Shown here one piece after another: positions 3,895-48,106 of a stretch of 64,000 nucleotides of DNA. The notes under the pieces are model-generated. The model saw only the letters and a list, made by a program, of their open reading frames with translations, had not been told where the DNA came from and did not search any database. Source of the DNA: Octopus vulgaris. Lineage: Eukaryota. Numbering within the stretch: position 1 is the stretch's first letter; each line of letters begins with the position of its first letter. The position numbers and the translations under genes are program-made. The stretch covers positions 44,764,001 through 44,828,000 of the forward strand of contig OX597825.1 in assembly GCA_951406725.2 (NCBI GenBank), in the 5' to 3' direction.

Positions 3895-5183
3895 TAGTTT
3901 AAAGATAGACGAAATTCCGTGTGAAAGGACGGCTGGATTGTAAAGAAATAATTTAAATGCATATGTATTATGAGCGTGAGCGCTCACTATTCAATTACTT
4001 ATCAATTACAATTAAAAAGCAAAACAATTTAACGGACTAACTAATTAAGTACAACTATCGAAATATATTTCTATATATCACAAATAATATTAATCCAAAC
4101 TCGTTTATATCTAAGAGAATCTTTTGCTTTTATAACATAGAACAATGATATATATATGTGTATATAATTAAGTATCATGGTCTTGATTTATATAGAACTG
4201 TAATAAAACGTGTAAAAATATGAATAATTATATCCTTAATAACTCTTCTATTGATATAAAAAATTATTGTTTCAAGTAATTAATAGGAATGTTCTATAAT
4301 TATTGTTTATCGGAGGCATAATTCCGTAATAAATGTGAAATAGAAACCTATTTAAAATATTTTCTTTGTTTACTTAATTTATCATAGGGAGAATTCCGTA
4401 ATAAATATGAAGATAAACCCATGGCTGTAAACTCTATAACCTAAATGCTCCATAGATATAATGTTAGGCTGTAATAATGGATATCGACATATTACAATTT
4501 TTTTTTTTAGAATTACCCAAATTGGGAATTACCTGAATAAGGATTATTATTCGTTTATTATGGAAGGGAGAACTCTGTAGATAAGTAAAAATTAAATAAT
4601 ATAACAAAAGAAGTATTAAGGATTGCTTACGATGAAATAATTAATATTATCATTTTAAAATTAAATGATTATAAATAATATATATACAAATTATATTAAT
4701 TCTTTCCGAATTAACAAAATGATATTGTTGTAATAAGAACACAAGTTATAAACTATACAATATTATAATAATTATTCTGGTTATTAAATATATTTATTAA
4801 GTCAATTAAAACTATTTATTATTATCATTATTATCATTATTACAATTGTCATAGATTAATTAATAAATTAAATGAATGTATTTATACATATATTCATTTA
4901 TTATTATGAAGACATCTTATTTATAATGTGTAATTAATATTAATACTAATATAATGATGTATAAAAAAGTAACTACAAGAAGAGCATAAATGGAATCAAA
5001 TTTTCTAACTTTTCTAAATTGTTGTAGATTAAACCTACTTAATTATTTTGTCCGATAAAATTATTTAATGTTTTTAATTGTAATTGAATAGTGAGCACTC
5101 ACGCTCATAATGCATACGCATTTAAACTAATTTTTTACAATCCAGCTGTCCTTTCACACGGAATTTCGTCAATCTTTAAACTC

Positions 5184-5258
5184 TGGCTCTGATGAGGTTT
5201 ATATATATAGTAGGTGTTATCAAAAACATGTATATAAGTCGGAACAAATTGTTAGCCG
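5184..5258 (+). ncRNA. Type I hammerhead motif with GAAA mutated to GGAA
   Basis: TGGCT-CTGATGA-GGTTTATATATAT...ATGTATATAAGTC-GGAAC-AAATT-GTT-AGCCG; stems I and II pair. Confidence 0.65.
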
Positions 5259-5373
5259 TTTGATATTTTTAATAATTGTTTATGTTATCTTATATTATGT
5301 TATATTATATTGCATTATATTATAATATATATAAGTTATTGGATTGTCAATTGTATCTCTCTAGTCAATTTTA

Positions 5374-6959: not shown

Positions 6960-7721
6960 CTTATCTTTTTACAGTTTTTTTCTTCTTTCTAAAGGATATT
7001 TAACTGTGGTTTATATTTTTTAATCAGTATAATTTCCTTATTTAAAGAAAATTTGGTTGAAGTGTTTCCAGTGCATTAATAGAGAGGGAAGATTTAGTAT
7101 TTAGGGTTTATGTCTACGGGGCATTGGTCTAGGTGCTTGCTTACGGGAATTTTCCTAGTGATGGGGGTCCCAGATTTGTTGCCTGTGTACCGTAAGTCTA
7201 TCCCTCAAAGTTAAGCTAGTTTGACCTATGTAGTCCCCACTACAACCTCCACATTTGAGAACATAGATTAAGTTCTTCGAAGCACAGGTGAAGTCATAGT
7301 TTATGGTAAAAGTTTGATCTGACTTAAATTTCTATGTTGAGCCCTCTAAGAGGAAGATGCAAGTTCCGTAGTTAGAGCGGTTGCACTTTTAGTCTTATGG
7401 GGTTGTATTTTTGGTGGGTAATTTGGCGCTGGGGAGTAATTTTTTTAAGGATTGCGGTTGTCTCTTGCTTTTAATAATCCTATGTGTTTCCAGTACCTTT
7501 TTCATTCGTGGGTCCTTCATAAGGAGGGGTATGTTTTGGTGGACGATGTTGTATGCTCCCATGTTTCTTGGATTGTGTGCTGATACGTAAGATAGAGTTT
7601 TAAGTGTGTCATGGTGTTTTCTTGTTATCTGTAACCCTCGGATGTCTATCATTTTTGCACATTCTATTCCATTCATGATTAGACTGGCCGGGTATTTTCT
7701 TTCTAGTAATATAACTCTCAC
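6960..7721 (-). mobile_element. Penelope-like element 3' fragment (thumb region + GIY-YIG)
   Basis: ORF 7395-7721 (KYPASLI...YVSAHNPRN...SKRQPQSLKKLL). Downstream minus-strand frame reads FTCASKNLIYVLKCGGCSGDYIGQT...RLTVHRQQI. Confidence 0.85.
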
Positions 7722-7801: not shown

Positions 7802-9874
7802 AAGAAACACCTACATTGCTAGAAATAGGAGCTAAAATGTTCTAATGCTGTAGTTAATGCACATTAATAAAAACATATACACAAACAGGGACCTGAATCG
7901 TTCGAAAAATACCGATCGAGTATTCTTAATACTGAAGTCAGTTTCGACAATTTCGTTACCTCATTGATTAAGTCCTGCTGAATCTCGGCTTTCTTCGGTT
8001 TGCTTCTCCATTAGTATATATGCTTTCGTCATCCAAATTAATAGATGATTTACCGATTCGATAATGTGTATACATAAAATTAATAGAAACAGCAGGTTGC
8101 AATATTCTACCACGAAGAAAAATTATTATTGTCACTAAATGTAACTAGCGCGTTAAGAAACACACATATATACTTGCAACAGCTTAGGATTTAAGGGACT
8201 CTACCTTTCACCATAGCCATGAGACTATGCTCTTCCCAATCAAAGGAGAACTGTGAGATGATTTTTACGATAGAGTCGGCCGATTGCCAGATCCTTTCTA
8301 CACACAATAGTCGCTGTTTGACATAACACCACAGGTCAGCAATGCTCGGGCACTATCCGTTCAGGTGCAGAACCGTTTCGTTTCCTCGGCGTGTATCTCC
8401 TGTAGACCCGACTGACGGCATTACCATGACTCTTGAGCTGACAATCCCTCCACTTCTGGTACGACTGTCAGTCCAGAGATTTCTGGAAATTATCAGTATG
8501 ACATGGACCAAAATTCTCTCGGAGAAGACTAACTAGTCGGTTCCTTTCGACGCCCAAATTTTTACCAAGTGCGTCTCGCTCTTGCTTGCCATTAATATTC
8601 AATAAGAACGCTATAGAAGAACTTCCACCGACATGATACCCGACTGTGAGCTCCTGACAACAACCCACGTGCCAAAGGCCTGGCTCGGTCAATTCTTCGT
8701 CCGAAACTGCTGTTCTACAAAAGGGACGAGCTATGGAGAAGCAATATTGACACGTGGCGACCACATTTACTCATCGTCAGGGAAACGCTAAATGTAATGA
8801 TCTATTTAAATTTATTATTGTGTTAAGGTTTTTTCATTCTTGTTACTCTCCAATTATTTTGTTTCAAAATTCTTTCTTTTTTATATTTTCTTCTATTTAA
8901 ACTTTTTTCTCTGCTTTGTCGTACGAGAACCGAGGAAGAAACTTCATTGCTTTATTTTTCTTTCCTCTTCATACCCTCTTATTTTTTGCTCCACAACTCA
9001 TTTTTCCTCTTCTTTTATTCTAATTTAGAATATATTTTTTTTGTGTAGCACGAAGTACAAGAAAGAGAATTATATCTAACAGTTAATTGACTCAAATGTT
9101 CTGTTTAAATATATTTTTTTTTATTTCGCCTTCGTTGCCAACATTAAAATTTTCTTTCTCTTCTTTCAGTCCAGCATTTGTTCTCTCTCCTCTTTTCCAC
9201 TGCTCACATCGGGGTATATCTTACGCCCTTGTCACGCTTAACGATACTGGCCTTGTCCTCACCTCACATTAACCTCTATTGCTATCACTATACGAGACAC
9301 TGGCATCTCTAACCACTCTACCATGATTCAATGTTATAGATCTATTACATACAGCAAAATTATAGGTCTATTACATACCACAGTTCTGGAAATTACTGGC
9401 TGCTAGCAGATGAACTGTATAGTTTTCTGAAGAAAAATCTATTACTAGAAGAGCAGAAGTAATGTAGAAAGAAGTCGAGGGAACTGCTTATCTGTCGTAT
9501 GTCACTAGTATATGAAGCGAAGCGCTAATAAGATCTTAACCATTCGTTGGATAGGCTACAAGTAAACATATGATAATGCACAACACTCTTGGCTTTTGGA
9601 ATGCCTGAGGACATCGGATTCGATGACAAGATTAACAATGTTTTAGAAAAATTTAGAGACTATCAGGTGTAGAATTAATGCAGGAATGAATCAATAAGAA
9701 GTGGGAAAATACAGAGGAGGTCTTTTAAGAAGACTCACGCTTTCCCTTACATTGTGTAATTGTATTAATCCCACTGACGAGCATACAGAGAAACTTCAAG
9801 CTTGTCTATGAGTTTTTTATGTAGATACATTCACTAACTACACCCGTGAAATTTCTACGGATTTTGCTTGTTGG

Positions 9875-10280
9875 TGGCGAGCTAACAGGTTCATTAGCGC
9901 GTCTAACAAAATGGTTAGCGGTATTTCTTTCGCCTCCTTACGTTCTCACTTCAAATTTCGTCGAGGTCTACTCTAACTTTCATCCTTTCAGGGTCGATGA
10001 AATAAATACTATTTGAGCACCAGGGTCGATGTAACCGAATGACCATCTCCCTGAAAATTTCGGGCCTTTTGGCTATAATAAGAAGGATTATTAGCTCACC
10101 AGACAAAATGCTTAGCAGTATTTCATCCGTCTTTACGTTCTAAGTTCAAATGCTACCGGGGCCGACTTTGCCTTTCATCCTTTCGAGATAGATAAAATAT
10201 GTACCAGTTGAACACTGGAGTCGATGTAATCGACTATTCCCCCATCTCAAATTTCAGACTTTGTGCCTATAGTAGAAAGG

Positions 10281-10282
<2 letters not shown>
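9875..10282 (+). mobile_element. Two degenerate SINE copies
   Basis: GGTGGCGAGCT...TTCAAAT...TTTCATCCTTTC..GTCGAT core occurs twice; (GTT)n tail. Confidence 0.8.
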
Positions 10283-10429: not shown

Positions 10430-12335
10430 GTGGGAGACATTCAACATCCAAGTACCAATCTCAAAATCCTAGCTGTCCCCAGCAGCGCAGTTTGGGAGCT
10501 TGCTCAGCTCTCATGTCAATTCCGATTTCTCTGACATATTTCTCGAACTTGGTTGTTAGTGCTCCGAACGCCCCTACAACTGCTTGAATGACAGACACTC
10601 TCCTCATAGTCCACAATCTTGTAATTTAGTCTGTTAGTAGTCTGTACTTTTCAATTTTTTTCTAGTGTTTTGTCACGTACGCGTGCATCCCCGGATATTG
10701 CAATATCTGCAGTCTTGGTTTCCTTTTTTCGTCTATCATAATATCTAGTCGCCGAGACTCGATTAGGGAGTAACATTGGATTGTAGTATCCCACAGTATC
10801 TTATATTCCTTGTTCTCGGTGACTCCTTCTGGTTCATGTTCGTACCATTTCCGTGCTCTTTTGAGAGCATACTTTTCACATAGCCTCAAATGGACGAACT
10901 TAGCCACATTATCATGTCTCCTTTTGTAGTGCTTTTGAGCCAGCTTGCTACACTCACCCACAATATGTGAGATTGTTTCATTTCTGATGCCACACATCCT
11001 ACAAAGGGAGATTCGTTACTCTTATCTCTTTAGAACTTGGTGTAACTAGTTCTCAGAGCTTGTTACTGGGCGCTGCATATCAATGCCTCAGTGCATCCTT
11101 TCATATTTCTTTTTTTAGCCATCTCCAATTGTAGATCTTGTCTTTTCCTTTGATTTCTCTGAGGTTATTGCCCATGCAGTGGTTTCATTTTCCAATTGTT
11201 TACTCTTTCTTCTTCATCTTGTTTCTTAAATATTTGTGGATGCATCATATTTTCGGTAGGTATCGTATTGTTAATTCTAACAGCGTCAAGCAAGGATTTA
11301 GACTGTTTTCTCGTTGACAACATAGATCTTGCATTCTATGAGGCCTCTTCCTCCTCTGTTCCTAGGTATCTACTGTTTGATTTGTATGATACCCCTCACA
11401 CAGATACTAAGGAAAGTGACATTGGGGTATACCTTGAAAAGTGGAGAAAAATTAATTAGACCCAAATTACATTCCGATATCCTTACTGAATATCTGCACT
11501 GTTGAAACTATGTCATTTATTTCACGTTCGGTCTTCCCAAAAATCTTAAAGTTATCCATAAATAACAGTATCGCTTTTGGGGTGTAGTTCCGTGCTAATT
11601 GTCATCACTTTTCTGGTTTTCGTGTCCATTTCTTTATTTGTCCACCTAACAACACCTGCGCCATATCGCATTAAAGAAACAGCTCATGTGTTCATTGCCC
11701 TGATCTCATTTTTTCCATTGAGCCTACATCCCATAATTAATTTGGTTCTTCTGAGATATTCTCACGTAAAGCTTTCCTTCATTTCACTTTCCTTGACTTT
11801 GTCATTTTCCAAGATCCCAAGATATCTATATCCATTAGTTTCAATATCCTTAATTTTCTCGCCGTTGGGTAGCTCTACACCATCAGACTTTGCCTTTTTG
11901 TACCATAACTATACTCAACCTTTTGGTCACAAATTCCATTCCGATATCCTTACTGAATATCTACACTGTTGAAACTATGCCGTTTATTTCACGTTCGTTC
12001 TTTCCAGAACTATTTAAGTCATCCATATATAACGGATGGTTTAATTTTTCTCCACTTTTCAAAGTGTATACCAATGTCACTTTTCGTAGTATCTGTGTGA
12101 GGGGTATCATACAAACTAAACAGTAATGGTGATAGGCTATCTCCTTGAAATATGTCTCTCTTAATTTTAATCCTCGCCAAAACATTTAGACATGAAGTTA
12201 GCTCTGTATTCCAGTTTTTCATTGATCTCCTAATGCAATATATTTTATCAGACACCAGTATCAGCTCCAAATTTTCTACAGTCCAGGAATGGGGGATCAT
12301 GTCATACGATTTCTTATAATTGATTAACACCACGC
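10430..12335 (-). mobile_element. R4/Dong-like non-LTR retrotransposon relic (RT + CCHC + restriction-like endonuclease), internally rearranged
   Basis: YKKSYDMIPHSW, IFQGDSLSPLLF, LNHPLYMDDL, CRMCGIRNETISHIVGEC...RHDNVAK, KILWD...RRLDI. Confidence 0.88.
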
Positions 12336-12866
12336 AGAGGATTAGTAAGTCTTTTCTTGCAGTCGTTCAGTACCATTCTGTGCGTGTGGGGAGGAGGGAG
12401 ACAGAGAGAGAATGTAATTCACTCTCTCTCTTTTTCTCACACACACACGCACACATACGTACAAAAATATGTATGCGTATTTGTATATGTACGAATTCAT
12501 GACACATTCTGTCAGAAGTTGGTCTTTTGACCTTTGGTTTTTCCTTTTGCGTCCTTTTTGTTCTACTGGAAGTTTGTCATATGCATGAAGTAATAGACAA
12601 CATTAGATATTATTCTTGTCATCAGCTTCCACATCAGGAGTAGACAGGTGATAGGCCGATAATCATCCACTACATTGCCTTTACTAGAATCCTTTTAGCA
12701 AAGAATTATTTTACTTGTGGTCACTTAGAGACAAACTTTTTGTGGAAACTCTTCTGAGCATTCTATTCCAAACTCTTTCAGCCATCTGTCCATATCTTTG
12801 CTTACCGTTCCCAATGCACCAATTATTCTTATTCTTATTCTTATTCTTCTTATTCTTATTATTATT

Positions 12867-14921: not shown

Positions 14922-15335
14922 GCCTTCGCACAGCTTCTAACGCTGGAGATGTACTACAGTGTCAGTTGTTCACTACTAAGGTAACACCTCTTATTTTTCG
15001 AGCACCTTCCAGAGTATTCGAGCGGTTCCAAGCAGTGCTGTTTTCTGCAAGTGCTCCACCCTTATTGCAACTCCTATTTTTTCCACGTACTTCTCGAGAT
15101 TTTTGCTCACTGTTCACAGGGCTCCGACAATTACTAGTACTACTGCTACTTTTTTCATCGACCACAACTGCTTAACTTCCCAAGCTAACCTGTCATATCT
15201 CTCAACTTTTCTGTCTTCCTTATCGCATACCGTGTTGTCAGCTGGGCATGCTATATCTATGATCCACCATAGTTTGTTTTCTTTCTCAATTAAGACTATG
15301 TCTGGCTTTGTTTTTTTTCTGAATTAAGACTATGT
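14922..15335 (-). mobile_element. R4/Dong-like 3' fragment (restriction-like endonuclease end + TAA tail)
   Basis: Minus strand reads PDIVLIEKENKLWWIIDIACPAD...EHLQKTALLGTAR, then a short UTR ending in (AAT)n. Confidence 0.85.
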
Positions 15336-15360
15336 CCAGTTTGTCATCATCATCATCATC

Positions 15361-15413
<53 letters not shown>

Positions 15414-15599
15414 TATTGTTGTTGTTGTTGATGTTATTAAACTTCCAGTAGAACAAAAAGGACGCAAAAGGAAAAACCAAAGGTCAAAAGACCAACTTCT
15501 GACAGAATGTGTCATGAATTCGTACATATACAAATACGCATACATATTTTTGTACGTATGTGTGCGTGTTATTATTATTATTACTAGTACTACTATTAT

Positions 15600-18130
15600 T
15601 ACTATTATTATTAAAATTAAATTAAATTCAAAGTTAGCAAACACTGAAATTTCAAAATTAAACCGGAATAACTGCGACGTCATCAGTCTTCGTTTTTTCA
15701 CAAAAGGTAGCAGAAGGAAGGAAAGGAAAAAAAAAACAAAAAGAAAGAAAAGAATTGAAAAAAAAAATTGTTCACTCAAAATTATAGTATAAATATGGTG
15801 GAATTCCTCCAAGCTGAGATGTCAAGAGTTCACAAATATATATTTATCCTCATGGGTTTTGAGGACTGAAAGTGCAGGGGAATGAGGGTGATTTTTGAGA
15901 ATGTGCACCTTCAGGTCCTCCTCAAATTTACACCCTTTTGATGTGAAATGCTCCACAAGTTCCGTGGATCGACTGTTATTGCACCTGACGTCGTACCTAT
16001 GCCCATTAAATCTTTTTTGTAATCGTTCTGTTGTGCAACCAGCATAAATCATTTTGTGTTTAATGCATTCCACTGCATGCACCAAATGGGAATCTCTACA
16101 GGTCTCTCCTTCTGTATCAATCATAACATTTGTTATAATTCTTGCTGGAATTGGTAAGGCTCGTGTTATTGCACAACGAGCAGGGTGTTTTGGGTGGTAT
16201 AGCGTTCAGAAACTCCAATGGACCTTTTATTAACGACACTGGTGAATATTTCTCTAATATTTCTATTACGTCTAAAGGCTACAATATGCAGAAGAGGAAA
16301 TATTTGTCGGAAATGAGGATATTTTTCTGAAACATGCTGGTAACTGTCATACAACACTTTTGAAATGCCAACGAAACTTCGGTGCCAGTTAATCAATAAA
16401 GGAATTCGGTCATAAACTCTTTTCTGACTGCTAAAATTAGGCGTGAAAATTTGATCACCACTAATTTCAGCTATGTCATTCGCAATTTCCTTTGATCTTG
16501 ATTCATTATAACCGCGCTTTACATAAAAGGCGCACCAAAGTATTTGCCTATTTCCAATAATCCCCAATGTCTTATCCTCAAAAACTAAGATTTTGGATTT
16601 TATCTGATTGTATAATGTGGATGATCATAGCGGCGGTGGAGATAAATATGGGATGACTGTTCGGCCTTCCGAAAACTTGACTTTTGTGTCCTAAAATTAG
16701 ACGCTAGTATTTGAAAAGCTCGACGTGAATTTTATCTTGGACTTAAAACCATAGTCTTCTGCGAAGCAGTCACAGAAATTTAAAAAATGACTAAACTAAC
16801 CTGTTTTCCTTCCCAGACAAAAGAAAGGCGTCGTCAATGAACCATAAGCAGAGTATAGGTTCGTGATCAGGCAGAGATTTAGATGTCTCCATTAATTGCG
16901 TTTCAAATTTTGTCATGAAGGCATTTGCGAAATTAACTGCCATAGGGGTACCCATGGCGCATCCCTTCGTTTGATGGAAACATTTTTTCTCCAAACTTCA
17001 TTGTGTTACTTTGTATGCACAAATTTTAATAATTCACAGAGAAACTTTGAAGGAATACTTTTCTTTGACGATTTTTCAAAGGCTTTCATGCATGCTTCCA
17101 CCCCAACATCGTGATCGATGTTGGGGTATAAGGAACAAACATCCATGGTTACAAAAAAAAAACGGTCTTTAACACTACTTCGGTGTTTAGAAAATTTGTT
17201 CAATTTGGAAACAAAATCAAAAGTTTCCCGAATGTAGGAATTTGATCTTTCAGCTACTGAGAGCAGAAAGCCATCCAAGCATTCTGAAATTTTAGCAATG
17301 CATTCATACCCAGTGCAAATTGGGCGCAATTATGGAAATTTTTCGAATTTTTTATGTATTTTTGGAAGACCGTAAAATACAGATGTTCTTCTTTCTGAAC
17401 GTAATAGCTTAGATTCCATGTCATTTATAAAATTCTTTTTCTACATTTCCAAAATTATAAGTTCCTCTCTGTAATTGGGGTTTGGATCTACAGGTAGTTC
17501 TTCATAAGTTTTGTCAATTAAAACTTCTTCACAAGCTGAAATGTACTCGTTCTTGTCCATAATTATAATAGCACCTCCTTTATCCACCATCTTAATAACA
17601 ATAGAATCATTGTTTGCTAGGCGACGGAGTGTGCTACGCTAGGAATCCGTAAGGTTAACCAGCTCTTTTTCCTACAGGAAATTCCTATCTAACAAGATTT
17701 GAGAAATTCCAACAGTGCTTGTGAACGTCCGGATACCAATTTGGATTCTTTAAAATCCAATTATGCCAGATCCGATCATCATCATTTCTTTCAACAAACA
17801 TGGGATTTTCAGACTCCCCGTTACCAATTCTTTCAAACAAAATGTTCTTGAAGCTTGTGACGGTGGACAAACTGATATAATCCTTGTGTTCATTTATTTT
17901 TGCCAAAATTCTTAGTGCTTGGGCAGAAACTAAGTCCAAGTTCTAAGACAGAGATATCGTCTGGTGAAAGTTTTAACTTTGATAAATTTATTGCCGTCTT
18001 ATTTTCTAACATGGTTGATTTTCTTGGTCTAGAGTTTTCCTTAGCATTACTTGCATCATATTTTTTACTCTCTTTTTGGGGGCTTTGATGGAAATCCTCA
18101 CTTAAAACATGGAATCTGTTAGGTGTCAAA
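15600..18130 (-). mobile_element. Penelope-like element (N-terminal region, RT, GIY-YIG), frameshifted
   Basis: AINLSKLKLSPDDISVLELGLSFCPS; VIKMVDKGGAIIIMDK; FVTMDVCSLYPNIDH; QTKGCAMGTPMAVNFANAFM; WFIDD; VECIKHKMIYAGCTTERLQKRFNGHR. Confidence 0.92.
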
Positions 18131-18225
18131 AATGCTGTTGATAATTTTGTGAAGGGTCACAACTTCTACTCGTCTTTGTCGATGTAACCCATATCTGGGT
18201 GGGTGATAAAAAGTGTGTGACTTTT

Positions 18226-18543
18226 TTAGTTTTTGTTGGCATTTGAAACATTTTCTTTTTTTAGAAAAGGAACAAATTTATTGTCCTCAAGCCATTTTTG
18301 ATTGATCAAATAGAAACTTTTTTCTGGTGAGTTTCCAATGACCTGTTCAAATGCGTATGCTAGCGCAAAAAGACCACAATCGTACGGACCAGCCTGGGGA
18401 TTAATTATTTCAACTTGTTTAATTGTAGGTGTTATGTTGTTTTGTGGCGAGTAGAGAGTAATTATCTGCGTGGTTAGTTCTTGTAAGATGGATAAATTTA
18501 AACTGTCATATACATAGACGTCTCCGAAAATTTTAATTTTCAT
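18226..18543 (-). pseudogene. Ulp1/SENP (peptidase C48)-like cysteine protease fragment
   Basis: VYVYDSL (catalytic Asp region) and PQAGPYDCGLFALAYA (oxyanion Gln + catalytic Cys). The catalytic His is not visible. Confidence 0.75.
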
Positions 18544-18803
18544 ATTATAATTTGGGCTTGGCTCAGGTTCAGTCTTATTCCTGGTAGGAATTATGTGGAT
18601 AGCTCATAGTTCATTGTTTTCTTGCTTTTTATTTTTTGTTTCATTTTTGTTTATATTTTTTCTTTTCGTCAAGTCATTTAGTGTCCAGTTAGGAATATTA
18701 TAACTATAACTTATAAATGGGACAGCGAGATTATTGATGCCTCTTACCTTATTTTTCTGACTTAAGCATTAATCTAATTCGCTTATAATATTCCTTCCTC
18801 AAA

Positions 18804-19210
18804 GGCGGCGAGCTGGCAGAAGCGTTAGCACGCCGGGCGAAACACTTAGCGGTATTTCGTCTGCCGCTACGTTCTGAGTTCAAATTCCTCTGAAATTTGC
18901 CTTTCATCCTTTCGAGATCGATTAAATAAGTACCAGTTACGCACTAGGGTCGACGTAATCGACTTAACCCCTTTGTCTGTCCTTGTTTGTCCCTTGTTGG
19001 CAATAAAGACATAAGAAACGTTAGCCTGCCGGGCGAAATGCTTAGCGGTATTTCGTCTTTACGTTCTGAGTTCAAATCCCGCCGAGGTCGACTTTGCCTT
19101 CCATCCTTTCGAGGTCGACAAATTAAGTACCAGTTGCATACTGGGGTAGATCTAATCGACTGCTTCCTCCCCTAAAATTTCGGGCCTTGTGTCTAGAGCA
19201 GAAAAGAATA
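18804..19210 (+). mobile_element. SINE dimer (same family as 1-1017)
   Basis: GGCGGCGAGCTGGCAGAAGCGTTAGC...GAGTTCAAAT...CATCCTTTCGAG occurs twice. Confidence 0.88.
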
Positions 19211-19549
19211 TTCCTTTCTCATCTTGTTTGCTTTGTGTTTGGTGTACACTGACTAGTCAATCCAGTTCACTGATTCCTGGGTATTTGTTTGAGTTTGGTC
19301 TAATTATCTTATTTGAATTTCTTTATCTAGTATGATAAAACTATAGTAGTTAGTTTTAGTCTCTTCAAGGTTGCTTTGGCGCATTTTTCTGATAGAAAAC
19401 CGTTAGTGGAGAGAAGGAGTCTCTTTGGATTATTCCTCTTCTAATGGGGATGGATTTAGCTTTATTTTATTTCCCTCTTTTGTCTTTTGCTGCTGAACTG
19501 ATCACCATTTCCTCATGATAAATGTTTTGTGTATTATTTTCCTCATGGC

Positions 19550-20570
19550 TAGTATTTTCAGAATCCACATGATGGCAGTGGGAAATGCTCAGAACATCTT
19601 TTGTTTCTGCAGTTTTCAATTGTGAGTTTCTCTTCTTCTGGAAACATGTTGTTTTCTTCCATATGTCTGCTTACTGTCAGTGATATTAATGCAGGTAAGA
19701 CTTTGTTAAGTGGCAGAGGTACATAATATGGGTTTGTAGTTTTGTGGGTGTGTGATTTCATTAGATTTGACAATTAAAATTATTTTCCTTTCGTTGTGTC
19801 TAGGGAGAGTCATTAAGCCAATATTAATAACACACGCACTTGTTCAATTCCACTCTTTTATTATTAGTCAATTGGTTAAATATCCGACTAACTAATCGAG
19901 TGTTTGTTTAACTTGGTTAAACAGTTAGTCGTTTGTTTGGGTTTTGTTTGTCTTGTTTTTTTCGTCAAAGGTCTTTCGTTGCTATCTGCAACCCTTCTAG
20001 TGGCTTTTATTTTAGTCTGTTACGCGTTTGTCGTCTGTCTGAGACCTTGATGCGTGCGAGTGTTTAACCAAGTTACACAAACAAACAAATAGTTAGTTGG
20101 ATATTAAACTAAATGACTAATGATAAAGGAGTGGAACTGGACCAGTGCATGTGTTATTAATATTGGTGTAATGACTCTCCCTAGACACCATAAAATTTGT
20201 TTGAACACACGAATTATCTCATTCCCGTCAGCGTATCACTAAACTTCTCGTCCAACTCCTTATCTGTCCTTGTTAAATAATTTAATCAAAAGTTGGGGAT
20301 CTTGTCGCTTCCTGGTGCCTTCCATTTGTTTGATTTTTGCAGAACCTGGTTTATTTATTCCGTTATTATGAGTGTCCAAGTTTGTTCAAGTGCTGAGTTT
20401 ATTGTTTTGTTCAATATTTTCCTGCGTGATTCCTTCGCAGCCTTTAATGCTTCCAGAAATACTTCTAATTTTGTTGGTAATATCTTCTGCATTGATCTCT
20501 CTATTTTATTTTAACCAAGTTAAATATCTGAGGGAGTATCGGCTTTCCTTTGTGACTACAGAAGTTGCTA
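19550..20570 (-). mobile_element. R4/Dong-like RT N-terminal relic interrupted by a MITE
   Basis: WKAPGSDKIPNF at ~20290-20325 and RHMEENNMFPEE at ~19630-19670. Confidence 0.6.
19795..20188. mobile_element. MITE-like element with ~130-bp diverged terminal inverted repeats
   Basis: GTGTCTAGGGAGAGTCATTA...ACTTGGTTAAAC versus GTTTAACCAAGT...TAATGACTCTCCCTAGACAC. Confidence 0.8.
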
Positions 20571-20714
20571 CATATTTTATTTAGCCTGTTTATGTTGATG
20601 TTTGTATCTGTTATCATTAAGCCTGTGAACGTCAAATTTATGTATTCCACTGTAACTAGGTACATAAAATCTTCGAACAGACGGTCAGTAGCGACACGTG
20701 CGGGTCTGACTACG

Positions 20715-20755
20715 CTGCATTGATAAAGGGCAACAACCCTGAAACATGTCTGCAG
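20715..20755 (+). ncRNA. Minimal type I hammerhead ribozyme, U3:A8 variant
   Basis: CTGCA-TTGATAA-AGGG(CAACAA)CCCT-GAAAC-AT-GTC-TGCAG; all three stems pair; GUC cleavage triplet. Confidence 0.85.
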
Positions 20756-20932
20756 ATGTCTGACTAGCAAGGTGAAGCGGCTGACCTCCCCTGTTCGAAG
20801 GTTGTAATATGGTAGTCTATAAATATAAGATTAAAGCTGTCGCTGATTAGCTAGCTATATGACACATGAACCTGTGTCCATTACAACCTTCGAACAGGGG
20901 AGGTGAGCCGCTTCACCTTGCTAGTCAGACAT

Positions 20933-20972
20933 CTCAGACACGTTCCAGGGTTGTTGCCCTTTATCAATGCAG
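20933..20972 (-). ncRNA. Inverted copy of the U3:A8 hammerhead, degenerate (GGAAC)
   Basis: Minus strand: CTGCA-TTGATAA-AGGG(CAACAA)CCCT-GGAAC-GT-GTC-TGAG. Confidence 0.65.
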
Positions 20973-21862
20973 CGTAGTCAGACCCGCAGGTGTCGCTACT
21001 GACCGTCTGTTCGAAGATTTTATTTACCTAGATACAGTGGAATACATCCACTGTTCGAAGGTTGTAATAGACGCAGGTTCGTGTGTCATATAGCTAGCTA
21101 GAGGCGATGGCCTCTTGGAGCTAATCAGCGACAGCTTTAGTGTTATATTTATAGACTACCATATTAGTATGGCGATAACTATTAATATCCAGTAACGCTG
21201 CCGTAATCTCCTTTAGAGAGACTTAGTAATTTTAATATTTCTATTATATATATATATATATCAGGAATTATATTCTCCTTGATTTGACAAGTCATCTGTT
21301 TACAAGCTGACCACAGACGGACACACAGACACGGGCTCCTATCAGCTGCCTGACCAACAAAATCAGCAGTTCTCTTTCTCTCTACCCGCTGCCTGACAGA
21401 CTCCCACACATACACAGGCGCGCACACACATACATGTAGGTAGGGTCCCACACCTATATAAGATAGCCTTAATTCTTAAAACAATCCGAACATTAACTTT
21501 AGTTATACAGAATATATTCACACCCTTTGGTTTTCAGTATTTCTTCCACTACCAGGGTTGACCGCAGTCTGACCTTGATTTATTCCAACGGACTTTTTCG
21601 TCGGCCTCCACCCCCCCCCCTGACGTCAACGCATATTGAGAGACAGTTTTGTGCTTTTTCATGGGCTCCTAAGGAGCGTTTTGTTCGAATACCTTGCTGC
21701 GCATTTGTTTTGGATTTTTAAATTCCTGGATTTTCCTGAAGAGAATGCTGCAAAATGGTCTCCTTATTCAATCCGAATTTGGAAATTTGCGGCCTTTGAA
21801 ACATGTGTAGAAAATAATAAAAGGAATTCTGTAGCATCTTCGTTCAGCTCCATTTCTTCCCT

Positions 21863-33839: not shown

Positions 33840-35965
33840 AAGGCATTCTGGAGAGGGATCTGGGAACAACTGTAGAGCATAATGATAAAGCAGAGTGGCT
33901 GCATGAAATCCCAGATAGATTAAGGAATATAGAAGTCGAAGAAGACATAAAAATAACTACAGAAATGATTTAAAAAATAGTTAACAAAATTTCCAAATTG
34001 GAAGAGCCCAGGGCCGGATAGGGGTCCATGGTTGCTGGATGAAGAAGCTGAGAGAGCTCCATGACAGGATAGCACAACAGTTAGATGAATGCTTGCTGGA
34101 AGGCGCAATACCCAGCTGGATGACAAAGGATCCTGAAAAGGGAAATGTTGCATCTATCTTTAGACTAATAACATGCCTTCCGCTAATGTGGAAACTAATG
34201 TCAGGTGCTTTGACCAGTGAACTACATAGATACTTGGGAAAAAGTATGGTGTGGAATATATAAGAGGCTTTATATGGAATAGCATGAGATACAGGAGAAC
34301 GGAATTGACAGACGGGAAGCAAGTACTAGGACAGGTGAAAATCAAGAGCGGAATCTTCTAGGGGATCAGATGTCCCCACTGATATTCGTGCTGGAAATGA
34401 TCCCCTTGAGTGAAATACTACAGAAAACAAAGTTGGAGTATGATCAGGGAAGAAGTAAAGGAAAACTGAACCATTTGCTATACATGGACAACCTAAAGCT
34501 ATTCACAAAAACTGAGGCAGAACTGAACAGCCTAGTTCAGTCTGTGCGGATTTTCTCCAATGATATTAAGATAGAGCTTGGACACTCAAAATATGCTACG
34601 ATGGTGATGAGACGAGGAAAGCTTGCTAGGACAGAAGGCATATGCTTGCCAATTGGTGAAATGGTGAAGGCAATTCAACCTTAGTCCAGCTATAAACACC
34701 ACGACATGAAGGAAAGGACAAAAAAAAGTAATAAAAATATTGCGGCGAGTGAGAAAAATATTGGCTCCAAAGGTGAATTCCTGAAACATAATTTCGGCAA
34801 TAAACTCGTGCGTAAGTCGCAGTAGTTCGGTATAGCGCTGAAGTCCCGAAGTGGACACAAGAGGAGCTAAAGGAGATGAACAGGACATCAAGAAAGCTCC
34901 TAACGATACATGGAGCCCAACATCCACGTGCAGGTACTGATCGCATATACATGAAGAGAGCAAATGGAGGAAGGGGACTGATAAGTGTGGAAGACTGCGC
35001 GCGTATCGAACTCGAGAGCTTAATGAGATACCTAGCCCAAAGTAAGGAAACCTTGCTCGAGGGAGTATTGAGAGCAGAGAAAAAGGGGAAACAAAGGAAG
35101 AAGTACAAAAACGACATGAAGAAGAATTACGCAACAAGGAACTACGCAATCAATTCCACGTAGCCACAACAGAAGTTGCTGGAAAAAATAGGTGAGACTG
35201 ACTTATGAAAGGAACCCCCTAAAATAAGAGACCAAGAGCACTATACTGGCAGCGCAAGACCAAGCTTTGGCTTCGAACTGGAGAGTCTTAAGAATGAGCA
35301 ATTGTCTCCTCTGTACCTCATCTGCAATAGAGTGGATGAAACCATGAACGAATGCCTTAGACTTACCCAAAACCACTACAAGTTGTGGCGAAACGGCCAG
35401 GTAGCGAAATTGCTACATTAGAAACTGTGCCAAAAGTGGGGGCTAGAGAGAGGTAAGACTTGGTATAAGCACAAACTGCAGAGGGTGGCGGAGTCGGAGA
35501 TTAGCAAAATCCTCTGCAATTTCCTAATCCAAATAAATCAGGTAATAGAACAAAACAGACTGGATCTAGTGGTGGTGGACACGGTGCACCACATATGCTA
35601 TATATTTGACGTTGCATCCCCTTTTGATCCACGAATAGTCAAGAAGGAAAGCGTAAAGATAGATACAGCCCTCTTAAGTACGAAATAGCTCGGCTATGGA
35701 AAATGAAGAAGGTGAAGATAGTGCCAGTTATTGTTGGATCCTTGGAAACGGGATCAGAAGGCATCAAGAGGAATATAAAGGAAATTGGAATTGAGTGCCC
35801 AGTAGAACTGTTACGATATGTTTGCCTCCTTGGCACAGCCAGAATAATCAGGAAAGTATTAGGTAGCTGAAAAGAACGAATAGCATGGTACCGTAGACTG
35901 CAGTTAGTAAGCCCATTACGCAAGACTCCAGAAGCTCCAACAAAACCTGTGAAAATGATGATGAT
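33840..35965 (+). mobile_element. R4/Dong-like non-LTR retrotransposon, internally deleted
   Basis: HNDKAEWL, NWKSPGPD, RLITCLPLMWKL, LNHLLYMDNLKLF, HPRAGTDRIYMKRANGGRGL, QDQAL, RLDLVVVD; (GAT)n-like tail. Confidence 0.9.
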
Positions 35966-41553: not shown

Positions 41554-44500
41554 GCCAGGTCTTTTTCGAGTGCTACTGGTAACATGTAACCCAGTACAAC
41601 TTGTTGCATGGTCGGATTGTCGGCGACTAAACCGGCAACCCCACCAAGCTTGCTTGGTGAGGTGGGTCTTTATTGGACACCCTGCGGGATGAAAACAAAA
41701 CCCGTCAAAGGGCGCAGGAACTCTTGAGAGTCAACGGCCATCCAATAAATGTCTTAAGGATGTATCATGCGCGGGGACATAGGAATAATCGGACTGAATA
41801 CCTGATCGCGCGGTTAAACCTTTGGAAGTGAAGGACTCCTAGCCTTTGTTAGGGCATCCTTCTAGGAGAAGGTAACTAAGGTAACTGGGATAACTCCGAC
41901 ATAAAACCTTCAGCTCAGTGGTTACCGATGATGTTGACTTGGTCTTCATTTCGGATTATGGCTGCTGTTGCTTAGTGAGTGGGATTGACTCAGTGCAAAG
42001 CCTTTCCTCTCTTTAAAAAAGACACTTCTTGTACAGGCATTGCACAATAACAACATTGATTGATTGATTGATTAAATTGATTAACTAATTCATGATTGTT
42101 GATGGCGCTGTGAGTCTCAACTGAATGGCTGGCTGTAGCCTTAAAAAGCAAAAAATCAATGATGTACCAAAACAGTATAAAAATAAATGGTAATAAGGAC
42201 TCTGGAACCACATCAGTTGAAAGAGTCTGGCCCAGCAGGAGCCCCAGAGCATCACAGTCTGAACCCGGCCGTCATCATGCTACTGTGATAAACCAAAGAA
42301 AATATTGAATATTGGCTGTTGGAATGTACGGACACTGCTTGACCGCAAGTCCTCTGAATGTCATGAAAGAAGGACTGCGCTTGTTGCGAAGGAGCTTCAA
42401 CGCTATGATCTTGACATCGTTGCTTTATCTGAGATGGGATTACCAGGAGATGGTCATCTTACAGAATCTTGTGGAAAATATACATTCTTTTGGAAAGGGA
42501 GGAATGAAGAGTTTAGAGGAGAAGCTGGAGTGGCATTTGCTGTTGACTACTCTTGTGGACAAGTTGGAAGAATTCCCAGTCGGAATTAACGAGCGTCTTA
42601 TGTCCAAGAGAATTCCTTAGGTTAAAGGAAATTATGTGACCTTGATGAGTGTGTATGTTCCAACTATGTGTTATACTGATGACGAAAAACTTTCTTTCTA
42701 CCATGCTTTGAAGGGCATTATAAGAAATATCCCTCGGGCAGACAAAGTCATTGTACTGGGTGACTTTAATGCTAGAGTGGGTAGGGATTTTAACACATGT
42801 AATTGAAAAGCATGGGGTTGGGAAGTGTAATAGTAATGGCATGCTTTTGCTGCAGATGTGTGAGGAGCTGCGTCTGTGTGTTTCAACAAAAGAATAAGTT
42901 TAAGACTACATGGATGCACCCTGCATCTAAAGAATGGCATATTCTGGATTACCTCCTTGTTAGGGTGCGTGACAGAGAGGATGTGCAGTGTGTTCGTGTT
43001 CTTCGTGGAGCTGAGTGTTGGACTGACCACCGCCTAGTACATGCAAATGTGAAATTAGTCACAAAACATAATTTCCGAGCTGCAGGGATCACCCTGCCTA
43101 AAAGACTGAATGTTGATCGTCTTAGGTGTAATAGTGTGAAGAGAACTGTACGAGAGGAAATGAATGCTACAGATATTGAGGAGGACTGGCCGAACTTTAA
43201 AAAATCAGTTTATGACGTAGGCAAGAAAGTTCTGGGATTGATACAAAGAAAGCATCACGACTGGTTCAAAGAAAATGATGAACATATAGATGATTTAATA
43301 GCTGATAAGAGACATACTTTGTCACGATATTTGTCAGCAAAGCCACAGGAAAGGGAAGTGTTGCATAGGGAACTCAAGGACGTAAAATCACGTGTGAGGC
43401 AAAGGTTCTCTCAGATGAGGAATACGTGGTGGGGTAATATGGCTAGAGAGATACAGGCGGCATCAGATTCCAACAACAAAAAGCTGTTGTATGGCCTCTT
43501 GTGAGAAGTTTATGGACTGACGTCTTCCCTGATGACACCACTTCGAAGCAGGGATGGTAAAGAACTTCGTGATTCACAAGGAATTCTGCGAAGGTGGCAA
43601 GAACACTTTGAAGAACTTCTGAATCAGCAGTCTGTAGTTAGTGAGGATGTTCTCAATATTATCCCTGGATTGCCTGGATTGCACTCGCAGAACCACCAAA
43701 GTTGAAAGAAGTTGCAATGGCTGTCTCAAGGTTGAATAATGGGAAGTCTCCGGGTATGGATGGTATACATGCGGAGTTGTTACAGCATGGTGGTGGGAAA
43801 CTTGTGCAGAAACTTCACTCTTTGTTTGGTAAGATATGGACTAGTGAATCTGTACCTGAGGACTGGAGAGATGCAGTGGTCTTGTACAAGGGAAAGGGCA
43901 ACAGGAATGATTGTGGTAATTATAGGGGAGTATCATTGCTGTCTGTCGTAGGAAAGGTTTTATGCAGGGTACTTCTGGATCGTCTGCTGAAATACGTTGC
44001 AGATTGTGTTCTTCCAGAAAGTCAATCTGGCTTTCGTGTTGGACGTGGCACTGCTGATATCATCTTTTCAGCTAGACAGCTTCAGGAGAAGTGTGTTGAA
44101 CAGGGTCTGGATTTGTATCAGGTTTTTGTCGATCTAACAAAAGCCTTTGATACCGCCAATAGAAAAGCATTGCGGAAAGTCCTCCAGAAACTTGGGTGTT
44201 GTGAAAAGTTCCTGGCTTTGGTTAAGTCGTTTCATGAAGACATGAATGATAGGGTGAATGTTAGGGGGAAAATGTCGGAGCCCATTTCAATACAAAATGG
44301 AGTGAAACAGGGGGATATTCTGGCACCGACCCTATTTGCCATATATTTCGCGATGGTGTTCTGTATTGTATTCAGAAACTGCAGATACGGTGTTTACATC
44401 CATTATCGAACCTCTGGCAGCATATTTAATATCAGGCGCTTTGCTGCAAAAACAAAGGTATTTACCTCTATCATAAGAGACCTTTTGTATGCAGATGATT

Positions 44501-45725
44501 GTGAGCTAGTAGCGCAACACAGATTGATATGCAACACATTTTGAATGCATTCTCTGATGCTTGCACTGCCTTAGGATTGACAGTCAATCTCAAGAAAACT
44601 GTTGTCATGCATCAACCTGCCCCTGGTAAGCAGTATAGTGTACCAAATATCTATGTGAATGGTAAACGACTTGATGTAGTGGATCAGTTTGTCTACCTGG
44701 GAAGCACTATTAATAGATATGGCAATGTTGATGATGAAATTCCATATAGAATTAGGAAAGCAAGTGTTGCTTTCGGAAGGCTAGAAACGCGCCTCTGGAG
44801 TCGGCGAGACATATGCAGAAAGACAAAGATAAAGGTGTACAAGGCATGTGTGCTCCTTTCTCTTCTCTATGCCTGCGAGACGTGGGCCACATATCGATAC
44901 CACCTTAAACAACTGGAACGTTTCCATCAGATGTGTCTCAGACGGATCTATGGCATTAAGTGGAAGGACCGCATCAGTGATCTTGAAATATTGGAAGGCT
45001 CTCGGTGTGAAAGTATAGAAGCTCTTGTGATCTCAGATGGAGTGGTCATCTGGTCAGGATAACGGATTCAAGGATGCCAAAACAACTCTTTCATGGAGAG
45101 TTAGCTAAAGGAGAACGACCTCCACATAAACCAAAAAAGAGGTATAAGGACTTGCTGAAGGCTTCCTTAAGAGATACTTGCATCTCTCCTGACACATGGG
45201 AAGACATAGCTATTGATCGTAGTAGGTGGAGAAGGATTGTGCACGAGGGTACAGCTACTTTTGAGAAATCTTGAGTTGCACATGAGAAAGTAAGGAGGGA
45301 TGTCAAGAAGGGCATCGCTGTTACACTTCCAGATGCGAAGGATCTTCCTATGATGCTGACATGCAGTGTCTGTGCAAGACCCTGCCTCACTAAAGCTGGA
45401 CTCAAGAGTCATCTTCGTAGTCGTAAAGCGAGACAGATAAGTGACAACCTGGCCACTGGTGGTGGTGTAACAGACCATACTAATTATACCTGTCGGGAAT
45501 GTGGAAGAGAGTGTAATTCGGCAGGAGGACTTAAACGACATGCAAAGGTACATGAAGCCCAGTTGCAACTACAGCCGGCTATTACCGGTAAAGCTTTTAG
45601 TTGCCAATTCTGTACAAGACATTGTAGATCTTTAGCTGGGCTAAAAAGTCACTTTCGATTACAGCACCAATAACAGTTAACCTTTGTGCAATGGCCATAC
45701 TCGATAACGAGGGGGCAGCTATCAT
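41554..45725 (+). mobile_element. Near full-length RTE LINE (APE + RT + 3 C2H2 fingers), frameshifted
   Basis: NIGCWNVRTL, DIVALSE, LGDFNARVG, TWMHP...LDY, TDHRLV; KSPGMDG, YRGVSLLS, ESQSGFR, FVDLTKAFD, GVKQGDILAP, LLYADD; 3' hairpin CTCG-ATAA-CGAG and (TATG)n tail. Confidence 0.96.
45350..45673 (+). pseudogene. Three C2H2-type zinc fingers at the RTE ORF C-terminus
   Basis: CSVC..GLKSHLRSR, CREC..GLKRHAKVH, CQFC..GLKSHFRLQH. Confidence 0.9.
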
Positions 45726-46099: not shown

Positions 46100-47942
46100 C
46101 GGGAAGCTTTATGAAAATAGACAAAAGACGAAGGCAGGTGGAAAACAAACGAACAATTGTATTAGTATGGCGCTCAGGAAATATAAATAAAACAAGTCTT
46201 TAACGTTTCGAGCCTACGCTCTTCAACAGAAAGATACACAGAGAGAAAAAAACACAGAAAGAAGGAGAGAAAAAAATGCGTGCAGTAGCTAACGAATCAA
46301 CATGGCGATCTGATTTCGGCCAGAGGTCAAAGATCAAACATGAGACGCGAGAGCGAAATAAGGGGAGATAATAGGGTTGATAATATGGTTGAAGGACCAG
46401 CTAATAGTGCGTAGGAGGGGTCTGGACGTGTATGTGTATAGGGTTGGTGTATGTATTAGTATGTATAAGGGTGTGTGTGTGTGTGTGTATGTGTGTGTGT
46501 GTGTGTGTGTGTATGAGAGAGTATTAGTGCGTAGGATTGGTGTGGACGTGCGTATGTATGGGGTTGGTGTATGTATTAGTATGTATTAGTATGTATTAGT
46601 ACGTATTAGTATGTATAAGTGTGTGTGTGTGTGTATGAGAGAGTATAAGTGCGTATGAGGGGTCTGGACGTGTGTATGTATAGGGTTGGTGTATGTATTA
46701 GTATGAATTAGTATGTATTAGTACGTATTAGTATGTATTAGTTGGTGTATGTATTAGTATGGCACATCATATATGATGTGATGTGTGAAGTCGTGTGGTG
46801 TAGTGAGGAGAAGAGGGGGGAGGAGGGGGAGGATGAGAGGGGGAGGAGAGGGGGGAGAGGAGAGGAGGGGGGAGAGAGGGGAGGGGGAGAAGGAAGGGGG
46901 GAGGGGGGAGGGGGAGGAAGGAGGAAAGAGGGAGAGGGGGAGTGGGGGAGTGAGGGAGCAGTGGGAAGGGGAAGAGGGAAGGAGGGAGGGAGAAAGAGGA
47001 AAGAAGGGAAGGGGAGTAGGGGTGAAAGGATGAAGGACTGAAGAAGTAGGGGTCGGGGGAAAAGATAGGTGAGGAGGTGGGAGAGGGGGTTAGATGAGGA
47101 GGGGGGAGAGTTGAGACCAAATGGCGTATAAGAGCGAAGAGAGAAGATTAATTCCTGTTCACGGCGCAAACGGGAATCCGGATGGCCTCTGTGTAAGGAC
47201 AAACCGAACACAGATAGGTGTTGCAAGGAGTGACCGGTGGAGCGGAAATGGCGTGAGACCGGTGTGCCGTTCGCAAGGTGGATGTCACGAAGGTGTTCCG
47301 CGAACCGGTCAGCCAAGCGGCGTCCCGTTTGTCCGATGTACAAGGAATTGCAGAGAGAGCAAGAGATGCAATAGATAATATTGCTGGAGGTGCAGGTGAA
47401 GGAGTGGATGATGGGATAGGGTCGATGGTGGGTGCTAGTGAGGCGGGTGGTGTTGGAGAGGTAAGGGCAAGTGCGGCAACGTGGGCGGGAGCAGGGGAAC
47501 GAGCCGGGTTGGGAGGTAGGGTCAGGGAAGGAGCTATGGACCAAAAGGTCTCGAAGGTTGTGGGCTCGTTTGAAAGAGGGGAGGGGTCGGTTAGGGAAGA
47601 GGTGTGAAGTGGACGGGTCGGACTGGAGATGACGGAAAGCTCGAAGAATGGTGCGTTGGAGACGTAGGGTCGTGGGGTGGTAAGTGAGGGGAAAAGGGAG
47701 GCGGGAGACTACAGGGCGGGTTCGGGGAGAGAGAGCAGATACACGGTCCACGGACCGTGCTCTGGCAAGGGCGGTGTGGATAGTGGTGAGGGGGTATCCA
47801 CGTAGGGTGAAGTGGTGAGCCATACGTTGAGACTGAGTCTCAAAGTCATGGTCGTCACTACAGAGCCTACGTAGACGGAGGAATTGGGAATAGGGGATGG
47901 AAAGTTTGGTGTGTTCTGGGTGGGAGGAAGAGAAGTTGAGGT
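46100..47942 (-). mobile_element. 5'-truncated Penelope-like element with GIY-YIG, low-complexity 3' UTR and pLTR
   Basis: [24 protein letters not shown]; CSRPRCRTC; [36 protein letters not shown]; GLN. Confidence 0.95.
46197..46233 (-). ncRNA. Hammerhead motif in the PLE pLTR (U3-G8 core)
   Basis: Minus strand: TCTTTCTG-TTGAAGA-GCGTAGGCTC-GAAAC-GTT-AAAGA; hairpin GAGC-GTAG-GCTC. Confidence 0.6.
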
Positions 47943-48022
47943 ATGAATATATATATATGTATGTATATGTATGTATATGTATATATATGTACATATATAT
48001 ATATATATATATATGTATGTAC

Positions 48023-48106
<84 letters not shown>

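Follow-up and report, generated by a model that had tools for sequence, protein, structure and literature searches.

A stretch of 64,000 nucleotides of Octopus vulgaris DNA (contig OX597825.1, positions 44,764,001 to 44,828,000; this whole stretch is referred to as the window) contains on its minus strand the remains of a Penelope-like element (PLE), from a family in which a clan CE cysteine protease, of the Ulp1/SENP fold, shares one open reading frame (ORF) with the PLE reverse transcriptase (RT) and a GIY-YIG endonuclease. An earlier note, made from the letters of the window, had placed a Ulp1-like protease upstream of a PLE ORF and proposed a PLE lineage with a protease-RT-endonuclease polyprotein. 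Such a lineage exists: all three domains are present in one ORF in 35 proteins, and the window RT groups among them. The protease is also real, but in intact relatives it lies inside the ORF and not upstream of it. From comparison of the sequences we consider it nearly certain (a probability of about 0.97 for the architecture) that the protease was gained between the ancestral helical domain and the RT of a single ORF, probably of Neptune type. As to its role we favour, at roughly 0.55, a tethered SUMO/ubiquitin-like deconjugase that would serve counter-defence. Of the two functions that the earlier note offered, this agrees with the countering of SUMO-dependent silencing more than with self-processing. 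The note did not recognise three things: the window copy is a dead, truncated one, the protease has been inserted internally, and the family has a StopGo-like leader.

The window DNA is AT-rich, dense in repeats, and of animal type, and its repeats may be like those of cephalopod genomes. Segment 18525-15837 on the minus strand is a single decayed PLE, pseudogenised and 5'-truncated. Residues 311-1244 of the intact relative P0126 match it in a single unbroken frameshift-aware alignment (41% identity over 879 residues), by which the window copy has 10 stops and 16 frameshifts, and 16 family proteins compared with the window by tblastn match it colinearly between 18531 and about 15835, from the protease through the endonuclease. 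The parts of the element are located as follows (HMM, hidden Markov model; iE, its independent E-value).

18226..18603, minus strand: stop-to-stop ORF with YDSL...QAGPYDCGLFALAYA; protease-derived only at about 18540-18260, its first 20-25 codons not
18260..18540, minus strand: protease of clan CE (Ulp1/SENP fold), C-terminal half (family HMM iE 1e-25 at 18540-18298; hhalign 99.7)
18007..18275, minus strand: protease-to-RT linker with decayed KWxxPK and NRF motifs, frameshifted (linker HMM iE 2e-7 at 18275-18144; frameshift-aware alignment)
17718..18006, minus strand: PLE N-terminal conserved region, INLS...GLSFCP (tblastn, family alignment)
16567..17671, minus strand: PLE RT core, interrupted by stops and frameshifts, in which DKG, GTPMA and FIDD motifs can be seen (family HMM iE 4e-70)
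16190..16654, minus strand: RT thumb region (tblastn)
15825..16133, minus strand: GIY-YIG endonuclease with decayed Cys linker (family HMM iE 3.5e-24 at 16115-15834; Pfam GIY-YIG E 0.019)

The ORF with the YDSL motif is present on the minus strand as first described, but its stop-to-stop extent is 18603-18226, and position 18543, previously taken as its limit, is an internal methionine. NRFHVL starts about 105 bp after its stop on the same strand, with AINLS...GLSFCP next and pieces from both RT and GIY-YIG domains downstream, again on the same strand. The ~100-bp 'gap' corresponds to the conserved protease-to-RT linker of the family. It had been noted that no microsatellite or terminal inverted repeat intervenes, and this holds: Tandem Repeats Finder reports no array between 15613 and 18627, and by self-blastn of 15000-21500 the part from 15570 to 18800 is free of inverted and dispersed repeats; no repeat in that part has a further copy in the window. 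The suggestion that protease and RT share one frame applies to the intact relatives, in which they form a single ORF. In the window, the protease and NRFHVL ORFs read as one frame with 3 stops, and this apparent common frame results from compensating frameshifts at about 18320, 18292, 18231, and 18139.

In the window the protease is reduced to its C-terminal half. Alignment and the family HMM place the start of homology near 18525-18540, and the N-terminal helices and catalytic His are absent; within 18260..18540 the catalytic Asp (YDSL) and the oxyanion Gln and Cys (QxGxxDCG) are kept. The clan CE triad is therefore incomplete in this copy, the His column being absent with homology starting near 18530, at the point of 5' truncation. 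Neither upstream of 18540 nor in the rest of the window is there a match to the family HMMs of leader, helical domain, and N-terminal protease half (best iE 0.68-0.98), and the missing 5' part is thus absent and not displaced. 5'-truncated PLE copies like this one arise from incomplete copying, and the window copy itself is a fossil.

Pfam C48 (PF02902) matches the window ORF weakly (E 0.0097, 16.2 bits, below the cut-off of 20.7), and Pfam gives only sub-threshold matches for 13 window ORF fragments, with RVT_1 at E 0.008 on one RT fragment. The RT-fused proteins P0127 (16.0 bits) and P0149 (16.8 bits) are also below the PF02902 cut-off, which shorter relatives such as P0040 (22.6 bits) and P0049 (23.3 bits) exceed. 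Profile comparison with hhalign gives the window protease a probability of 99.7 (E 1.4e-25 over 93 columns), and phmmer with the window protease ORF, run against 1.84 billion proteins, yields 94 relatives at E<=0.001. Twenty-four of the 94 run at least 150 aa past the domain; 19 of these go on into PLE RT sequence, two show the family linker and then end, and three have other contexts. When the protease-plus-linker frame is compared with longer proteins there are 3 matches among 894 candidates, each with protease, RT, and GIY-YIG in one chain. With the protease part left off, the score of the window RT is 518 bits for the best clade member, compared with 213 bits for the best protease-free outsider.

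These matches bear on the possibility that the protease fragment belongs to an adjacent element, either a DNA transposon or an upstream long interspersed nuclear element (LINE), and merely lies next to the PLE. A LINE remnant is indeed found directly upstream of the PLE on the same strand, and the NeSL and Utopia-1_TSP LINEs carry Ulp1-like domains (PMC4640811). However, the NeSL/Utopia protease is N-terminal to the RT, whereas here the protease is 3' of the LINE's RT remnants, and the LINE family concerned (7 proteins) has no protease (best E 0.095). An adjacent DNA transposon, the alternative raised by the earlier note itself, is excluded because homology is colinear and unbroken from protease to endonuclease, and it runs through protease, linker, and RT to single proteins. 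Intact fused proteins already refute the adjacent-element explanation, and we give it practically no weight.

The family was examined through its RT. A search with the RT region of P0015, from which the best 120 of 167 proteins were used, gave together with earlier matches 122 proteins with long RT matches, 43 of which have the protease. A FastTree RT tree was built from 119 of these and the window, omitting 3 short-RT proteins, two of them (P0032, P0144) with protease. All 41 protease-positive tips among the 120 fall in one 69-tip clade (support 0.991), and the window lies in a 44-tip subclade (0.999) near P0009, P0126, and P0099. In a 40-taxon IQ-TREE fast run with SH-aLRT support, the core clade including the window has a support of 100. 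Short, partly garbled proteins with 47-60% identity to the window protease (P0005, P0007, P0018-P0020, P0031, P0047, P0066, P0071, P0079) are probably further decayed family copies called as genes.

Twenty-two single-ORF proteins of 1219-1520 aa are complete, with leader, helical domain, protease, linker, RT, and GIY-YIG. The same N-terminal helical domain is found in 15 PLEs outside the clade. The protease directly follows the helical domain in 28/28 clade members that have one and in 0/15 of the outside PLEs, and the distance from helical domain to RT is 253-566 aa in the clade and 29-81 aa in 11 of the 15 outside. Because the helical domain lies a short way before the RT in most of the outside elements and is followed by the protease in the clade, the protease has been inserted into what is otherwise a normal PLE ORF. 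Modelling of P0125 gives confident folds for its protease, RT, and endonuclease, as judged by the predicted local distance difference test (pLDDT), whereas linker residues 208-262 are below 50 and the protease-to-RT linker is probably disordered. The best structural matches to the full model are telomerase RTs (ranks 1-8).

Comparison of the linker and endonuclease motifs with Fig. S2 of PMC8557442 suggests that the protease clade is of Neptune type, a group that is paraphyletic in that study. As in the C-terminal endonuclease-positive PLEs of Neptune type described there, the family has a single ORF, a PLE RT, and GIY-YIG as its C-terminal domain, and two Cys (or Cys and His) lie between GIY and YIG; the CX2-5CxxC linker with a long spacer in the Neptune rows of that figure is present in basal family members. 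Pfam GIY-YIG is above cut-off in P0015, P0024, P0033, P0034, and P0051, and the domain is C-terminal to the RT and not N-terminal as in Naiad/Chlamys. Among the 22 full-length proteins, C-x2-C is found between GIY and YIG in 8 and C-x2-H in 14, with the downstream His identified by eye only. The family differs from Neptune in the inserted clan CE protease, the StopGo-like hydrophobic leader, and an ORF of 1219-1520 aa. It differs also in the CX2-5CxxC linker, which is kept in 19/59 in-clade proteins (mainly basal) against 39/46 outside, is lost in most of the window's subclade, and is decayed in the window copy, as well as in the DKG motif, which is kept in 11/22 full-length proteins and modified in 11/22 (DKT in 1/22). 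Assignment to the Hydra clade (DKT with RWK, a CxCX5C linker, no CCHH) was rejected, as C-x2-C/H is kept in 22/22 and DKT occurs in 1/22.

In the intact relatives, the protease has a His-Asp-Cys triad and oxyanion Gln in clan CE order, and these columns are invariant in the RT-fused proteins (His 34/34, Asp 34/34, Gln 42/42, Cys 43/43). Median pairwise identity in the first 18 of 29 proteins is 48% for the protease, 49% for the RT, and 26% for the helical domain. The minimal protease domain is about 175 aa. A profile search of the PDB returns a Chaetomium Ulp1-like protease (E 3.8e-5), SENP1, and SENP5, and with an AlphaFold2 model of the protease (pLDDT 94.7) the best Foldseek match is SENP5 (E 9e-7), with SENP2 and SENP1 also found. 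Structural comparison with VIA gives Z scores of 16.8 for SENP3 (rmsd 3.0, 166 aligned), 16.3 for a NEDD8 protease, 16.2 for SENP1, and 15.8 for Ulp1, with SENP5 within 16.8-15.8 and an rmsd of 2.6-3.3 over 164-166 residues for the top matches. There are 29 chains at Z of at least 8 and the next is at 4.7, which assigns the model to the clan CE fold. The protease thus resembles cellular SENP/Ulp1 and NEDP1 (Pfam Peptidase_C48, clan CE) in its fold and in its triad and Gln, and differs from them in having 14-19% identity, a mostly replaced tunnel Trp, and RT-fused members below the Pfam cut-off. When the Atlas was searched with the N-terminal 460 aa, no lead reached 0.9 (C48 clusters scored 0.84), and the closest cluster (61 members) is labelled 'hypothetical protein' with no protease family listed.

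Related protease domains also occur without a PLE RT. In P0063, P0068, and P0080 they are joined to PHD fingers, and a scan of prokaryotic genomes found a related protease at three loci (L001, L002, L003, around 4700-5370) on contigs of two bacterial metagenome-assembled genomes. No PLE RT, endonuclease, helical domain, or leader is found beside the protease at these loci, and we take the neighbouring ORFs to be integrase- and transposase-like. The DNA looks eukaryotic and transposon-rich, which suggests contamination and a possible DNA-transposon source of the protease domain; being eukaryotic-looking, these loci are not evidence for a bacterial source.

Intact N-termini have an MxDxxxYRxRIGxF-type motif followed by a hydrophobic stretch and DPxV/IExNPGP. 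The published expanded StopGo core is (D/G/C/N)(V/I)ExNPGP (PMC12846837). In 29 RT-plus-protease proteins with an N-terminus, 22 leaders fit this core if its first position is left free, 27 have N/H/Q-PGP, and 2 have none. In the protease-negative RT proteins, a set of 66,120 residues in which many N-termini are incomplete, NPGP was found 0 times. A StopGo motif alone is insufficient for ribosome skipping (PMC3708506). Like the 2A/StopGo sequences of APE-type LINEs described in the same paper, and reported also in 10.64898/2026.06.17.732966, the family has NPGP towards the N-terminus of one long ORF; those LINEs differ in belonging to the Rex1, Crack, L2, L2A, CR1, and Ingi clades, and the first core position of the family is mostly Ser. 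The word 'Penelope' is absent from the available texts of the 2A papers PMC3708506 (as is 'GIY'), PMC12338488, PMC12846837, and 10.64898/2026.06.17.732966.

The most likely scheme is that the intact element produces one polyprotein within which the protease would act as a tethered, active clan CE isopeptidase. Its targets would be SUMO, ubiquitin, or NEDD8 attached either to the protein or ribonucleoprotein of the element itself or to host silencing factors at the target chromatin, and taking off these tags would protect the element where degradation or silencing depends on them. At the StopGo-like motif, ribosome skipping would shed the hydrophobic leader or lower protein output. In PLE copying, as outlined in PMC8557442, GIY-YIG nicks DNA and the RT copies the element RNA by target-primed reverse transcription, and piRNA-guided silencing in Drosophila is reported to require SUMO (10.1101/533091). 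As context for a deconjugase role, deconjugase-type domains of different kinds are found in further PLEs (an OTU-like one in P0160, a Josephin-like one in a Chlamys element).

Several observations weigh against this reading, either in its architecture or in its proposed role. The window copy itself lacks both the catalytic His and the leader. Support for monophyly of the whole clade is only 69 in the 40-taxon IQ-TREE run once the basal P0004/P0149/P0154 group is added, compared with 100 for the core, so that descent from one origin is firm in the core but moderately supported for the clade as a whole. No protease was detected in 27/68 in-clade proteins with domain HMMs that were built from in-clade sequences. 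The helical domain is found in none of the 27, and we therefore read them as N-terminally incomplete ORF calls; several begin in the protease tail or linker, and there may be true losses among them. The exact published StopGo core is present in only 7/29 leaders, the first position being mostly Ser. With regard to specificity, SUMO, NEDD8, and yeast SUMO proteases lie within 1 Z unit of each other at 14-19% identity, and because the SENP, NEDD8, and Ulp1 matches tie, the structure does not decide the substrate of a deconjugase. Bacterial deubiquitinases and viral polyprotein proteases have the same fold at Z 10-14. The Trp of the SENP 'WLND' motif, which contributes to the substrate tunnel, is Trp in 3/32 proteins, and the residue following the catalytic His is Trp in 6/34, Phe in 25, and Tyr in 3.

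One alternative to a deconjugase is that the protease mainly processes its own polyprotein, for example at a Gly-Gly before GIY-YIG, freeing the endonuclease in the manner of viral clan CE proteases, whose cleavage sites are of Gly-Gly type. A Gly-Gly within 16 residues before the GIY motif is specific to the clade (43/59 in-clade versus 0/46 outside proteins), with Ile or Val two residues earlier in 24/43, and in P0125 it corresponds to residues 909-910, in a modelled loop after a strand. Adenovirus, African swine fever virus, and poxvirus proteases have the same fold (Z 9.8-11.3), but cellular SENPs outscore them structurally. The Gly-Gly is missing in 16/59 proteins, including the full-length, protease-bearing P0003, P0015, and P0098, and in one in-clade row, P0100, the pattern is mis-registered. 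It may be structural and is not invariant, perhaps a clade-inherited turn beside a zinc-binding Cys, and the tree tips are not independent. A fused RT-endonuclease, moreover, normally performs target-primed reverse transcription, which counts against its separation. We consider self-processing unlikely on balance. Cleavage between protease and RT, as might be expected from the self-processing suggested in the earlier note, is disfavoured by the presence of Gly-Gly in that linker in only 1/35 proteins. A fuller, virus-like polyprotein strategy, in which StopGo would free the leader while the protease both deconjugates SUMO/ubiquitin and cuts at Gly-Gly to free GIY-YIG from the telomerase-like RT, is a further reading, but we regard it as distinctly doubtful.

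The invariant triad together with an altered Trp tunnel, and a fold that does not fix specificity, could suit an active protease that acts on an unrelated host substrate, such as a DNA-protein crosslink or a restriction factor at the integration site, or one that combines deconjugation with self-processing. Nothing positive points to any such substrate, and the nearest folds are all ubiquitin-like deconjugases; this explanation seems to us improbable, slightly more so than self-processing alone. It is very improbable that the protease is a passenger or a binding module in which catalysis is not needed. Related domains are found without a PLE RT, with PHD fingers or at the three loci beside transposon-like ORFs, and since they occur in these other contexts such domains appear to shuffle among elements, but all four catalytic positions are invariant and the protease is as conserved as the RT, across proteins with RTs down to 32% identical. 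A tethered deconjugase remains the role that we favour.

Proteases of this kind are known from other classes of transposon. NeSL and Utopia-1_TSP have a Ulp1-like cysteine protease N-terminal to the RT in the same ORF, but are nematode LINEs with a restriction-like endonuclease (PMC4640811), whereas the family has a PLE RT and GIY-YIG, and we infer that the PLE protease was acquired independently. Cryptons have C48 peptidases (PMC3212892), likewise transposon-borne proteases of the Ulp1 family, in DNA transposons without RT fusion. A deubiquitinase-type cysteine-protease-like domain is described in the PLE Chlamys-1_cBra (a Josephin-like motif) and in Dualen LINEs (PMC8557442); that of Chlamys-1_cBra differs in its protease family, weak homology, C-terminal position, and occurrence in the N-terminal-endonuclease clade of green algae. 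In P0160, a PLE outside the clade, residues 18-110 at the N-terminus resemble an OTU cysteine protease (below the Pfam cut-off, at E 0.0009), which would represent a second, independent gain of a deconjugase-type domain. The outside PLEs P0158, P0159, and P0184 are lengthened, at the N-terminus or internally, by about 330 to 700 aa that match no Pfam family. Mutator-like elements (Kaonashi) carry a C48 peptidase in a DNA transposon, not fused to an RT, and for them as for the Cryptons a counter-defence role is at most presumed. The protease-PLE architecture is not described in the literature searched, a scope outside which Repbase, Dfam, subscription journals, and bioRxiv supplements fall. The available text of PMC8557442 contains no mention of peptidase, SUMO, C48, or Ulp1, and its available supplement none of protease, Ulp1, or peptidase. 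Ulp1 domains are known in other transposons, and what appears undescribed is such a domain joined to both a StopGo-like leader and a PLE RT.

The following features flank the element.

15649..15686, minus strand: hammerhead-like core (CTGATGA...GAAA) in the 3' flank, a candidate at chance level (pattern match)
15569..15613, no strand: (TAA)n-like tract, probable 3' end of the element (tandem repeat listing)
18600..20410, minus strand: old LINE remnants, not PLE, adjoining the truncated 5' end of the PLE (colinear tblastn pieces, weak, E 3.5e-4 to 0.5)
18803..19210, minus strand: repeat resembling a short interspersed nuclear element (SINE) in the LINE remnant, not PLE (copies at 1-1017 and 9873-10281; flanks)

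The hammerhead-like sequence is at the expected place but is no more than a candidate: the window has 2 pattern matches where chance would give 1.24, and the folding z is -0.2; no hammerhead family is among the 13 rows of an Rfam scan. The LINE remnants, for which Pfam finds 0 families in three frames of 18531-20700, are presumably from an R4/Dong-like LINE with a restriction-like endonuclease, and the SINE-like repeat within them is flanked by a target-site duplication of about 14 bp. Long imperfect palindromes at 20640-21047 and 19796-20188 (86-87% arms), resembling miniature inverted-repeat transposable elements, are inserted in the same remnant. An identical 131-bp segment is present on the same strand at 15439-15569, adjoining the 3' tract of the PLE, and at 12445-12575, reflecting either a recent duplication or an assembly artefact.

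Elsewhere in the window, PLE fragments (thumb and GIY-YIG) at 47077-48942 and 7170-7595, both on the minus strand, have protease-free outside PLEs as their best matches and contain no protease. Fragments of a LINE with a restriction-like endonuclease, which we also take to be R4/Dong-like, are at 14994-15335 (minus; 76% identical to P0208, beside (TAA)n tracts), 10450-12400 (minus), and 33870-35867 (plus). LINE ORF2 fragments at 42803-45059 (plus), presumably RTE-like, show endonuclease- and RT-like motifs in long open frames.

PLEs are usually described as having RT and GIY-YIG only, and here a conserved, catalytically complete SENP-fold protease is present in the ORF, one that goes unrecognised by Pfam in the fused proteins. 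Domains of Ulp1 type turn up repeatedly in transposons of unrelated kinds, and no function has to our knowledge been demonstrated for them; with its compact domain of 175 aa in a single ORF, an element like this one makes the function of such transposon-borne proteases testable. Activity as a deSUMOylase, if true, would be direct evidence of a transposon-encoded counter to SUMO-dependent silencing, and the StopGo-like leader, if true, would extend 2A recoding to PLEs. A virus-like polyprotein strategy, if true, would mean that a target-primed retroelement matures by proteolysis.

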